Shown here: positions 34,056 to 55,700 of the stretch, piece after piece
How positions within the stretch are numbered: the first letter of the stretch is position 1
Layout of the letters: every line of letters starts with the position of its first letter
Sequence record: MK234886
Direction: 5' to 3' (one strand)
DNA: 64,000 nucleotides
Source of the DNA: Escherichia phage AnYang
Program-made: the position numbers and the translations under genes
The notes under the pieces: generated by a model
Seen by the model: only the letters and a program-made list of their open reading frames with translations
The model's database searches: none
What the model was told of the DNA's origin: nothing

Positions 34056-34097
34056 AGTTGATAAATCTATAGTATCATGCCTACCGGAGATGTACAC
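34056..34097 (-). promoter_or_regulatory. T4-type early promoter for the 33750-34037 gene
   Basis: Minus strand: GTGTACA, spacer, TGaTACTATAG, followed by TATCAACTAATGATGAGG and the ATG. Confidence 0.5.
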
Positions 34098-34112: not shown

Positions 34113-34145
34113 TTAGAAACAAAAATGGGACTCCGAAGAGTCCCA
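34113..34145 (-). terminator. Rho-independent terminator after the small basic protein gene
   Basis: TGGGACTC-ttcg-GAGTCCCA hairpin followed by TTTTTGTTT on the minus strand, 5 nt after the stop. Confidence 0.7.
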
Positions 34146-34149
34146 TAAC

Positions 34150-34311
34150 TTATGCCTGAGGCTTACCAAAGCAAGCAGCATCTGCACGCAATACCGCACG
34201 AGCACGAGCTTGAAGCTTATCAACTACCTGATCGATACGCTTGTTGGACGCACGCTTGTAACCAGCGCGTTTAGAGGTACCGTCAACTACTTTAACTTCT
34301 TTCTTAGCCAT
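34150..34311 (-). CDS. Small basic protein (53 aa), unknown function
   Basis: ORF MAKKEVKVVDGTSKRAGYKRASNKRIDQVVDKLQARARAVLRADAACFGKPQA; codons typical of highly expressed genes; own terminator; below the ORF-track size cut-off. Confidence 0.45.
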   Translation of the reverse strand: MAKKEVKVVDGTSKRAGYKRASNKRIDQVVDKLQARARAVLRADAACFGKPQA

Positions 34312-34466
34312 TTTAAATCTCTTAAATTAGAATGCAGGACTTATTGGCGTTGCCTGCGCAAGCCCTCAAGGGGAACATAGGTTTCAAATATTTAACGACA
34401 GGATAACCGTAAACCTCGTCATCATACCGACCACGACTTAGACAGATAACCTTTTTCTGACGCGTG

Positions 34467-34495
34467 ATAGTACAAAATACATTCAAGAGGTACAC
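34467..34495 (-). promoter_or_regulatory. Early-type promoter within the rIII-downstream intergenic region
   Basis: Minus strand: GTGTACC, 15 nt, TTGTACTAT; would give a leader of about 150 nt for the small basic protein gene. Confidence 0.4.
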
Positions 34496-34578
34496 CGTAA
34501 AATTGTCGGGGCGGTACTTCTAAAATATACCGATTCGTAAATCGGTAATCAGACAATTCGACGGCTCCTCGATTTAAT

Positions 34579-34827
34579 TTACTTCAGGGTAATAATAAAA
34601 TGACGTACTGCTTTACGAGCCGCTGAAGCCAAAGGCTTAGCAAATTTCAGTTCATCTTTAGCTTCCAGTTCAGCAGCCAGAGTAGCCTGAGCCGGATTAA
34701 GATGTTTGAAATAACGCAGGATTTCCAGTGCTTCGGCTTCAACATCAATAGATGCGCCATAGTTTTCGTGACCGTTGTTCCAAGCGTTGCGTTGCAGTTC
34801 AAGAGCGTGATTCAGTTGTTTGTTCAT
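34579..34827 (-). CDS. rIII: rIII lysis-inhibition accessory protein
   Basis: 82 aa, same length and position (just downstream of gene 31) as T4 rIII. Confidence 0.75.
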   Translation of the reverse strand: MNKQLNHALELQRNAWNNGHENYGASIDVEAEALEILRYFKHLNPAQATLAAELEAKDELKFAKPLASAARKAVRHFIITLK

Positions 34828-34965: not shown

Positions 34966-35289
34966 TTATTTATACAAGCAAGGAATTGCTTTATAATGAC
35001 AGGTAACGAATTTTTGTTTAATTTCTTTAGGCTGCTTAATACCTAGAGCAACTAAAGGATGAGGCACGTTAGCAATCTTACCAACAGGAAGTGGAGTCAA
35101 ATCACCTACTTCACAAAAATCTTCAGGGACATCAGGTCCCACAGAATAAATTTCACAAAGTTCAGGGATTTCGCCTTGATGGAGTTTGCCAATAACGATA
35201 CCAGATGCAGTAGTTTCTTCATCACCAGCTTGTTTTGGTTCGGAAACGAGAATAACATATTCTCCGACCGCTTTAATAGGAAGTTCCAT
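34966..35289 (-). CDS. 31: gp31 co-chaperonin (GroES analogue) for capsid folding
   Basis: [28 protein letters not shown]...[23 protein letters not shown] nearly identical to T4 gp31. Confidence 0.93.
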
Positions 35290-52743: not shown

Positions 52744-55700
52744 ATGGCTGATATTTTAAAACCTGCATTCCGTGCTACATCCGGACTCGATGCTGCGGGC
52801 GAGAAAGTTATCAATGTTGCCAAAGCCGATTACAATGTATTAGATGATGGCGTCAACGTTGAATTCTTTATAGATGAGAACACCATCCAGGCGTACGACG
52901 AGACGCGCGGATATAAGAAAGGGTTTGCAGTAATCCATGACCAACGTATCTGGGTTTCTCAACGTGATATCGATGCTCCTGCAGGAACTTTTACTCCGGG
53001 CTATTGGACCGCTACCCGTACCGACCCTAAATGGATTACCGTAGCATCTCCTACACGCCAGCTGGCTTCCGGTGAATATATTGCGGTGGATTCCGCTGCT
53101 AGCTTTACTACATTTACCCTGCCTCCGAACCCTACTGATGGCGATACCGTTGTAATTAAAGATATTGGTGGACGTGTTGGTTATAACGAAATCAAGGTCC
53201 AATCTAGTTCTGCTCCTGGCGGCGGTAACCAGAAAATTGTTCGTTTTGGTAATCAGTTTACTGAGACCTTAATTACGAAGCCTTTTTCTTATAACATGAT
53301 TATCTTTGCTAACCGTCTTTGGCATTTCTGGGAAGCCGGTAATGAAGAACGTGGTATTCGGGTAGAACCGAACATGGCCCAGTTCCAATCACAAGCAGGT
53401 GATAACGTTCTTCGTCGTTATACTTCAGGTGCAGTAATTAAGTTTACCCTTCCTAAGTATGCGAACCAAGGCGATATGATTAAAACCGTTGATATTGATG
53501 GTTTAGGAAGTAAATTCCACTTAATCGTTGAAACGTTTGATGCTTCGTCTGCATTAGGTAAACCTGGTCAGCATAGCATGGAATTCCGTACCTCCGGTGA
53601 TGGATTCTTTGTTTATAACTCTACCGAAAAATTATGGTATGTTTGGGACGGCGACCGTCAAACTCGTTTACGTGTAATTCGTGACGATGTTGAGCTCTTG
53701 GCTAATGAAAGTGTTATTGTTTTTGGCCCTAATAATACAACGCCGCAGACGATTAATATCACATTACCCACAAGCGTAGCGCAGGGCGATACAATTAAAA
53801 TAGCGTTGAACTATCTTCGTAAAGCCCAGACAGTAAATATTAAGGCTGCTGTAGGAGACAAAATAGCTTCTTCGGTTCAATTGCTCCAGTTCCCTAAACG
53901 CTCTGAATATCCGCCGGATACTGAATGGGTTCTGAATGATGTGCTGACCTTCAATGGTAACTTGAGTTATACTCCTGTTATTGAGCTTAGCTATATTGAA
54001 GATTCTACTACAGATGCCAAATATTGGGTTGTGGCTCAGAACGTTCCTACTGTAGAACGTGTGGATTCTAAGGATGATTTAACCCGTGCTCGTCTTGGTG
54101 TTATTGCTCTAGCGTCACAGACCCAAGCAAACGTAGACCATGAAAATAATCCTGAAAAAGAACTGGCTATCACTCCACAGACTTTAGCCAATCGTGTAGC
54201 GACTGAATCACGTCGTGGTATTGCTCGTATTGCTACAACTGCTCAGGTAAACCAGAATACTGGATTTGCATTCCAGGACGATTTGATTATTTCTCCTAAG
54301 AAATTAAACGAACGTACTGCTACCGAAACTCGTCGTGGTGTAGCTGAAATTGCTACGCAACAGGAAACTGATGCAGGTGTTGATGATACAACCATTATCA
54401 CTCCTAAGAAGCTACAGACGCGCCAGGGAACTGAAACCCTGTCCGGTATAGTAAAATACGTATCCACCACAGGAACCACTCCTGCGACTTCTAGAGCAAC
54501 TGTAGGTACTAACGTTTATAATAAGAACACAACTACTTTGGTTATTTCTCCTAAAGCTTTAGACCAATATAAAGCTAACTACGAGAACCAAGGCGCTGTA
54601 TATCTTGCAACTGCCCCGGAAGTTAATGCTGGTACTACTAATCCTGGATTCCAGAATGCTGTAGTTACTCCTGAAATGTTACACCAACGTGTGGCCCTTG
54701 ATAGTCGTACAGGTTTAATTGAAATTGCTACGCAAGCAGAAACTGATACTGGAACTGATTATACTCGTGCGGTAACGCCTAAGACGTTAAATGATAGAAA
54801 GGCTACAGAGACTTTAACGGGTATTGCTCGTATTGGTACTCAAGTAGAATTTGATGCAGGTGTATTAGATAATGTTATTTCAACTCCGTTGAAAGTTAAA
54901 ACAAGATTTAATGATACTGCTAGAACTTCTGTCTCAGCAGCCAGTGGTTTGATTGAATCAGGAACCTTATGGAACCATTATACACTAGATATCCGTGAAG
55001 CAAGTAATACTCAACGTGGTACGGCTCGTTTGGCTACCCAAACTGAAGTTAATACTGGTACTGATGACAAAACAATCATCACTCCACTTAAGCTTCAAGC
55101 TAAAAAGGCTACCGAAAACGCTGAAGGTATTATCCAACTCGCTACTCAGGCCGAAGTTATTGATGGTACGGTAAGTAATAAAGCGTTTAGTCCTAAGCAT
55201 TACAAATATATCGTCCAACAGGAAAAATCCTGGGAAGCTACTTCTGCTCGTAGAGGATATGTTAAATTAACCACAGGTACAGCCACTTGGGAAGGTGACG
55301 ATACTAATGGTTCTGTTGCTAACCTAGCTAAATTTGAAGATAACGGCTTTGCTATTTCCCCTCTTCAAATGAACACTGCTTTAACTCATTATCTTCCGAT
55401 TAAAGGTAAGGCTTTTGACAGTGATAAATTAGATGGATTTGATTCTACGCAGTTTATTCGTCGTGATATAGCACAAGATATTAATGCTAATATGACATTT
55501 AAACAGCCTGTAAGAATTGAAAACACTTTAGCGGTCACCGGTGCGGTTAATTTGAGTGGCTCTGTTATTTCAAATAATACTACATTAACCGGTTCTACTA
55601 CAGTCAATAGCAATTCTACTATGGGTGCTTTGAATTACATTGAGTTCACTTCAGAATCTCAAGGTGCGGGTACTTGGAACTCTCAACACAATAGTAATGT

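Follow-up and report, generated by a model that had tools for sequence, protein, structure and literature searches.

What is the 267-nt stretch without an open reading frame (ORF) that lies between the lysis-inhibition gene rIII and a gene for a small basic protein in Escherichia phage AnYang, and does it serve the gene that follows it? This locus was examined in a 64,000-nt stretch of the phage's DNA (sequence record MK234886; hereafter the window), in whose positions all coordinates are given; every element of the locus lies on the minus strand. rIII, the gap, a 53-aa Lys/Arg-rich ORF and a strong terminator were all present, as an initial annotation of the sequence had described. Sequence comparison identifies the ORF as a homologue of T4 gene 30.9. 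Comparison with related phages further indicates that the gap is made up of structured RNAs under selection, in which stems covary while loops stay constant, and these RNA modules and gene 30.9 were each found without the other. The modules may act in trans as decoys for host RNA-binding defence proteins, a reading that we favour tentatively and with somewhat less than even confidence.

Structured RNA modules in the gap

The window derives from a Dhakavirus-like T4-type phage (97.8% identity to IME341 over the rIII-30.9 stretch). For comparison, 44 distinct rIII-to-30.9 gaps of T4-type enterobacterial loci were collected from GenBank phages and IMG/VR contigs, together with 4 further gaps from Logan assemblies. 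All 44 loci have a non-coding gap, of 120-416 nt. The ORFs that can be called mechanically within it (one of 44 aa starting at TTG and one of 57 aa starting at GTG) had no PHROG or Pfam match and were not conserved; a coding role was rejected because these ORFs lack a family match and are broken in relatives, in agreement with the original description of the stretch as non-coding. When the window is compared with T4, conservation is higher in the gap than in the flanking coding sequence. The following elements are predicted within it:

34312-34578, minus strand: the non-coding gap between rIII and 30.9, 267 nt
34480-34575, minus strand: module A, a rod-like RNA domain of 25 bp (RNAalifold on 15 distinct sequences; single-sequence minimum-free-energy folding)
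34426-34471, minus strand: module B, a hairpin in which an internal ...UAAGU motif is conserved (covariation, 11 variants)
34376-34425, minus strand: module C, an H-type pseudoknot (covariation, 29 distinct sequences)
34359-34376, minus strand: module D, a short hairpin, GU(A/U)-CCC-loop-GGG-CUUG (by eye)
34334-34357, minus strand: module E, a hairpin, GCAGG...CCUGC, with the conserved loop CAAYGYCAAUAAGU (by eye)
34319-34332, minus strand: a weak hairpin, UUCU-AAUUUA-AGAG, masking the Shine-Dalgarno sequence (by eye)

Module C is the sole module universal to the gaps, occurring in exactly one copy in all 44 and also in phage phi92. Its predicted fold comprises stem S1 (GAC(G)AGG/CCUGUC; six pairs around a bulged G), stem S2 (UUUACGGUU/AACC(U)AUG) and an A-rich loop, L3 (GUUAAAUAUUUGA), and the linker (C)GUUAAAUAUNCAAAA is conserved. 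S2 has up to nine pairs and takes forms such as UUAGUAGUU/AACUACUAA, UUGUGAG/CUCACAA and UUGUUGGUU/AACCAACGG. In the alignment of the 29 distinct sequences, paired cells amounted to 80.6% versus 67.6% in shuffles and the covariation score was 0.381 versus 0.172, with none of 500 shuffles attaining the observed values. When the pairing partners were slid by 1-3 columns as a control, pairing was 31-48%. Eight pairs are altered on both sides. A search of the window with module C (nhmmer) gave one match (34427-34377, E 5e-14); in this copy S2 is weakened by a private U-to-C change.

In module A, an outer GAGG/CCUC helix is followed by GCCGU/ACGGU and then by GAAUUGUC/GACAAUUU, with the apical hairpin UACCGAUU-UACG-AAUCGGUA at 34528-34547. 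The inverted repeats described in the initial annotation, CCGATT/AATCGG (34528-34547) nested in GAATTGTC/GACAATTT (34552-34559 and 34500-34507), were found, are conserved and show compensatory changes. RNAalifold, applied to 15 sequences that are very similar to one another, gave 25 pairs, of which five had compensatory double changes (e.g. CCGU/ACGG to CCAU/AUGG, and AUGAUU/AAUCAU to CCGAUU/AAUCGG) and almost none were broken; single-sequence folding recovered the same helices. For module B, 4 of the 6 predicted pairs of the outer stem had changed on both sides across the 11 variants. These results bear out the idea of a structured RNA upstream of the ORF. G-U pairs occur on the mRNA-sense strand, which argues for selected structure in the sense RNA.

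The remaining elements were judged by eye. Module D, found in most gaps either beside E or directly after the rIII stop codon, has a stem of just 3-4 bp that varies as CCC/GGG, CCUC/GAGG and GCC/GGC. The stem of module E likewise covaries (CAGG/CCUG versus AACUGG/CCAGUU in loci L153 and L156) with its loop retained. The last hairpin is predicted to sequester the 30.9 Shine-Dalgarno sequence, AAGAG, and a hairpin of this kind was seen in every architecture (T4, AUUUUC/GAGAAU; Klebsiella types, UCUCC/GGAAGA; L165, CCUC/GAGG).

A UAAG(U/A)C motif recurs right 5' of the closing 3' strand in several modules (34334-34575 in the window, and module K in relatives), the instances being CUAAGUCG in B, AAUAAGUCC in E, UUUUAAGACC in the module A of T4 and GAUAAGAG in K; judged by eye, it may be a shared recognition element.

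Rfam 15 gave no gathering-threshold match in the window, with only noise at E > 1 in the gap, and nothing in 20 related loci; since Rfam also misses the genuine ToxI, used as a control, its negatives are uninformative on type III antitoxins. A tRNA/tmRNA scan found nothing, and no copies of modules C, K or H were found elsewhere in the window.

Mosaic arrays and their separation from gene 30.9

Across the collected loci, the gaps draw on a restricted repertoire of modules (A, B, C, D, E, H, K and T), the content and order of which vary between genera and between close relatives:

The window and RB69: A-B-C-D-E
T4: H-A-C-D-E
JS98-type Dhakavirus: A-K-C-D-E
Klebsiella JD18: T-C-H-K-D-E
Locus L148: K-C-D-E
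Locus L149: D-C-B'
Locus L153: C-H-D-E

Two Logan contigs, L166 and L167, have near-identical gaps (upstream of position 1501) whose sole difference is the whole 135-nt module K. Within Dhakavirus, B and K substitute for one another, K standing in the place of B in JS98-type phages. Module K appears to be a multi-helix RNA with the invariant 3' end GCUAACGGUGUGCAACAGAUAAGAG, in IMG/VR found solely at the rIII-30.9 locus; neither K nor D motifs were found in IMG/VR outside T4-type contigs. In IME08, module A is separated from the rIII stop codon by an extra, unassigned segment of ~60 nt (GTTTTAAGTGGATGTTGGCAGGTACCTCCACTATAATATGATACCTGC...; L001 1822-1895) that is absent from the window. ATK47 has an annotated 'ori type 2 repeat', which is a 10-nt pattern annotation and was given no weight.

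The initial annotation had seen no counterpart of this arrangement in T4, which does not hold. The T4 region (NC_000866, 130364-130784) has the same order of gene 31, rIII, a gap (244 nt), 30.9 (58 aa), a terminator and 30.8, encodes the homologous protein and shares modules A, C, D and E with the window at high identity. T4 differs in having H, in lacking B and in five extra N-terminal residues of its 30.9 protein.

The array and gene 30.9 are separable. In more distant T4-type phages, gene 31 is followed by a 45-100-nt spacer, a 30.9 homologue and a terminator, with neither rIII nor any module, and L315 has a canonical early promoter (GTTTAC-17-TATTAT) within this spacer. Distant relatives with an early promoter directly before the ORF indicate that 30.9 can be an autonomous promoter-ORF-terminator cassette. 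This form, which had been proposed for the window, thus exists in those relatives; in the window itself, the corresponding promoter in the gap is doubtful:

34474-34502, minus strand: early-promoter-like element at the A/B junction, TTTTAC (34502-34497), 17 nt, TATTTT (34479-34474), by eye

The by-eye match stands, but a sigma-70 consensus scan reported no site in the gap on the minus strand. The element is seen wherever B or K follows A and is absent in T4 because T4 lacks module B. It is the weakest part of the original description, and whether it is a real promoter is, from its sequence, doubtful.

Conversely, phi92 and at least 16 other phi92-like records carry a T4-type array without 30.9 within a tRNA cluster (identity 96.8-100%). 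The array reads H-A-C-D-E, with B added in some copies, in the same orientation as the tRNAs. In phi92 it lies between tRNA-Gly and tRNA-Gln (L006 2455-2815; FR775895.2 about 53480-53840) and is circularly permuted, ending at the 30.9 ATG and then running straight into the last 26 rIII codons. It is flanked by a 13-nt direct repeat, TTTATTGGAGATT, that overlaps the 5' end/acceptor stem of tRNA-Gln, and it differs from T4 by a compensatory pair. The finding of an array without the ORF and of the ORF without the array argues against a dedicated cis-acting leader, as had first been suggested, and for a self-contained RNA element. Separately, a 30.9 homologue of 64 aa was observed directly after two tRNA genes in a non-T4-type phage (L311 1301-1495).

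A cis-acting 5' leader, in which gp30.9 or another factor would bind module C or other modules and, with the Shine-Dalgarno hairpin, control 30.9 translation, is nonetheless the rival that fares best, although we consider it unlikely. In each of the 44 loci module C precedes 30.9, the Shine-Dalgarno-sequestering hairpin is conserved in every architecture, and gp30.9 is small and basic with an invariant Arg/Lys motif. Autogenous translational repressors of T4, such as gp32, use a pseudoknot operator, and the likeness is that here, too, a pseudoknot belongs to the leader of a gene, in a T4-type phage, whose product binds nucleic acid (a predicted property for gp30.9). An autogenous operator would be expected at a fixed position by the ribosome-binding site and together with its gene. 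Module C, by contrast, lies about 45 to 280 nt from the 30.9 start codon in different loci, with other modules in between and the module order permuted (C comes before or after K, H and D), and RNA and gene each occur alone, 30.9 in distant phages and the modules in phi92-like phages. Moreover, a single operator needs no five or six interchangeable modules.

Possible functions of the array

The reading that we favour, of trans-acting decoys, draws on the identity of one module found in relatives. In an unbiased blastn search of the JD18 gap against 72,556 plasmids, the single matching place was module H, which is 93.5% identical over 30 nt to the toxI repeat arrays of 65 small plasmids; the ToxI repeat used was confirmed on pECA1039, where tandem copies identical to it (100%) precede the ToxN gene. 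Relative to ToxI, the Mosigvirus H has one compensatory pair, a loop shortened by one base and one other base change. Among relatives, the ToxI-like unit occurs in JD18 and other Klebsiella phages (Jiaodavirus and Slopekvirus), in Mosigvirus ATK47 and WFbE185 and, diverged, in T4. At least 200 phage records carry such units (163 of them Klebsiella T4-types), which are annotated solely in phiTE. The experimentally validated pseudo-ToxI of phiTE is 84% identical to ToxI, and module H of the relatives is 91-93% identical. No mention of a ToxI-like element in T4-type phages was found in searchable papers. T5-like phages have a single ToxI-like unit between two tRNA genes (L187 801-839, Salmonella phage Kenya-K36; L188 801-839, Vibrio phage JSF10), a position from which tRNA processing could release a one-repeat antitoxin mimic. 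The record of Salmonella phage 7-11 also carries a ToxI-like unit (L186).

In the proposed mechanism, the array would be transcribed with rIII and 30.9 from the rIII promoters, perhaps also from a weak internal promoter, and its modules would act in trans as protein-binding decoys that titrate host RNA-binding defence effectors, for example type III toxin-antitoxin endoribonucleases. This mode of action is established for the pseudo-ToxI of phiTE, and the ToxI-like H of relatives would act likewise. Separately, the last hairpin would mask the 30.9 Shine-Dalgarno sequence and damp or gate 30.9 translation. The decoy reading follows from the independence of the units with their invariant loops, from their gain, loss and reordering as cassettes, from the one antitoxin mimic among them, and from transfer of the array into the tRNA clusters of an unrelated family.

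Two known systems are instructive for comparison. Like the phiTE pseudo-ToxI, the array would be a phage-encoded, structured non-coding RNA that is intergenic or near tRNA genes; it differs in that the window has no ToxI-like unit and its modules are single-copy and mutually different, not an expandable tandem repeat. Module C has the architecture reported for the CptI/TenpI antitoxins, a compact H-type pseudoknot (~50 nt in module C) built of two stems and a third loop rich in A (PMC12283969). It differs from them in having no adjacent toxin gene and no repeat, and no resemblance was found upstream of the putative toxin on the Klebsiella plasmid NZ_CP056218, the only tenpIN plasmid examined. 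The tandem repeats bounded by toxin cleavage sites that characterise type III antitoxins are not found among the window modules.

Several observations weigh against decoys. Natural type III antitoxins are tandem repeats, whereas each module is single-copy per genome and the gap has no repeats; even wild-type phiTE, with 1.5 repeats, is annotated in its record as a weak antitoxin. Searching the whole 64 kb for a ToxI-like module (nhmmer with a ToxI and module H profile) gave nothing better than E = 3. The window gap had no blastn match among plasmids for modules A-E. A composite module query had no match in E. coli genomes, in a search that is insensitive below ~35 nt, and a degenerate module C pattern had at least 120 matches in GTDB genomes, of which those listed were all judged to be chance on the basis of S1/S2 pairing. 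Taken as a whole, the gap is not unusually stable (z = -0.65 for its minimum-free-energy fold); the structural claim rests on covariation. Some cis control of 30.9 translation is likely, given the conserved Shine-Dalgarno-masking hairpin. T4 is restricted by toxIN despite its diverged module H (PMC9391042), and RB69 is more tolerant of toxIN yet has no H. The idea that a ToxI-like H accounts for the tolerance of RB69 was rejected for the latter reason.

A more ambitious version of the decoy reading is possible but doubtful: the gap would be a multivalent, rapidly reshuffled anti-defence RNA island, each module serving as decoy or mimicking an antitoxin towards its own RNA-binding immune effector of the host, with H the first to be recognised, C directed at a defence widespread in Enterobacterales and the array moving as a unit between unrelated families.

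The gene arrangement is already known, being annotated in many genomes, and the small protein is a known hypothetical. The covariation-supported modules, their combinatorial shuffling, the ToxI mimic in a T4-type array and the capture by phi92-like phages appear to be undescribed; in searchable papers, no described function was found for gp30.9 or for the rIII-30.9 intergenic RNA. T4 is among the most studied viruses, yet this region, conserved beyond its neighbours, has no described RNA in Rfam or the searchable literature. If the modules are decoys, they would form a compact, RNA-only counter-defence locus in T-even phages, broaden the one case known so far, the pseudo-ToxI of phiTE, into a combinatorial array and help to explain host-range differences among therapeutic T4-type phages. 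If they regulate 30.9, they would represent a new and unusually modular kind of leader. Either way, they are well-defined, covariation-supported RNAs, one of them a ~50-nt pseudoknot, amenable to deletion, pull-down and structural work, and gp30.9, itself conserved, gains a testable context.

The same evidence of structure and independence would also suit trans-acting non-coding RNAs that serve host takeover instead of counter-defence, as sponges or recruiters of S1, Hfq, ProQ, CsrA or RNase E. In keeping with this, RIII, the product of the neighbouring gene, binds ribosomal protein S1 (PMC9409239), and, by eye, the loops of A, B, E and K share UAAG(U/A)C on their 3' side. We regard this role as distinctly unlikely: no known host RNA-binding-protein motif was identified in the modules, their rapid turnover would sooner be expected of an arms-race locus than of a core takeover function, and H, the sole module with a recognisable identity, points to defence.

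The modules could instead be passive mRNA elements, stabilising the 3' end of the rIII mRNA, protecting the 5' end of the 30.9 mRNA, or serving as RNase sites or attenuators. Structured ends stabilise T4 mRNAs, the gap lies between two genes that are probably co-transcribed, and the hairpin at the tip of module A, followed by a U-rich tail, scored as terminator-like. This is very unlikely, since generic stabilisers need neither invariant loops nor a pseudoknot with a conserved 13-nt loop, cross-genus conservation exceeds that of the flanking coding sequence, and retention in the tRNA array of another family is ill-suited to a role in rIII or 30.9 mRNA.

Lastly, shuffling of DNA cassettes at a recombination hot spot with no RNA function would fit the mosaic locus, the terminator followed by an early promoter after 30.9 and the permuted phi92 copy with its 13-nt direct repeats, as from a circular or tandem recombination intermediate, but it is barely credible because compensatory changes and one-strand G-U pairs mark selection on RNA structure, and recombination accounts for the movement of modules, not for the preservation of helices. 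Such shuffling would be like the modular exchange of PeSL (promoter-early stem-loop) cassettes, ~50-nt regulatory motifs of T4-type phages that Arbiol et al. are said to have described in 2010. The locus resembles them in its mosaic content and in a small accessory gene bounded by a stem-loop terminator and then the early promoter of the next gene; it differs in that the window array is made up of multiple RNAs that are longer, have covarying helices and include a pseudoknot.

Gene 30.9 and the surrounding signals

The genes and the terminator around the array are as follows:

34966-35289, minus strand: gene 31, co-chaperonin
34579-34827, minus strand: rIII, lysis-inhibition accessory protein of 82 aa, the gene upstream of the gap (phrog_1457, E 5.5e-43; annotated rIII in relatives)
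34150-34311, minus strand: homologue of gene 30.9, 53 aa, MAKKEVKVVDGTSKRAGYKRASNKR...
34115-34146, minus strand: intrinsic terminator including its U-run (hairpin 34125-34146; terminator scan)

The 53-aa ORF matched phrog_1427 over residues 1-53 (E 4.8e-27), its homologue is annotated as 30.9 in the IME08 record, and it is 64-72% identical to the homologues of T4, JD18 and Mosigvirus. It follows gene 31 (and rIII, where there is one), precedes a 30.8 homologue and has a terminator after it, as 30.9 does elsewhere. The family comprises 94 clusters at 90% identity and, among 1.84 billion proteins, 23 representatives at 50% identity. Differences at the three codon positions numbered 105/77/172, the third-position excess expected of coding sequence. 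The proposal of a genuine gene, conserved and encoding a small basic protein, was thereby upheld, and the conservation in related genomes on which that proposal had been staked was found for both the ORF and the sequence before it. All 94 clusters are from phages, and no resemblance was found to ribosomal proteins, among which the initial annotation had proposed to search.

gp30.9 combines a Lys-rich tail with an invariant motif, G-x-SKRAGYKR-x-SN-x-R, and is predicted to be a nucleic-acid-binding peptide. An AlphaFold2 model of low confidence (mean pLDDT 67.5), with a disordered Lys-rich tail and a single helix at residues 24-46, suits this prediction and proves nothing. No Pfam domain was found in the window ORF or the 94 clusters, and no relative of gp30.9 was found in the PDB. 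An older UniProt entry for T4 (P0028, 97 aa, 'Uncharacterized 11.1 kDa protein in Gp30-rIII intergenic region') consists of 30.9 plus 39 upstream codons. This extension runs into modules D and E of T4 and is probably an over-call, because it is not open in the window.

The dedicated terminator that had been noted after the ORF is present and conserved. Its hairpin, ATGGGACTC-TTCG-GAGTCCCAT followed by a T-run, begins 3-5 nt past the 30.9 stop codon and has the features of a rho-independent terminator, namely a 9-bp stem (5 GC pairs), a UUCG loop and then TTTTTGTTT. A terminator hairpin follows 30.9 also in T4 and in distant T4-types, there as GGGACC-UUCG-GGUCCC.

Further promoter-like sequences flank the locus. 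The end of gene 31, on the upstream side of rIII, contains a T4 late-promoter consensus, TATAAATA (minus strand, 34966-34973), such that late transcripts may read through rIII and the RNA array. Just past the 30.9 terminator, an early-promoter-like element (GTGTAC, 17 nt, TACTAT; 34069-34097, minus strand) precedes the 30.8 homologue; T4 has GTTTACA...TAGTAT at the equivalent site, and this order of terminator and then promoter after 30.9 resembles that of the PeSL cassettes of T4-type phages.

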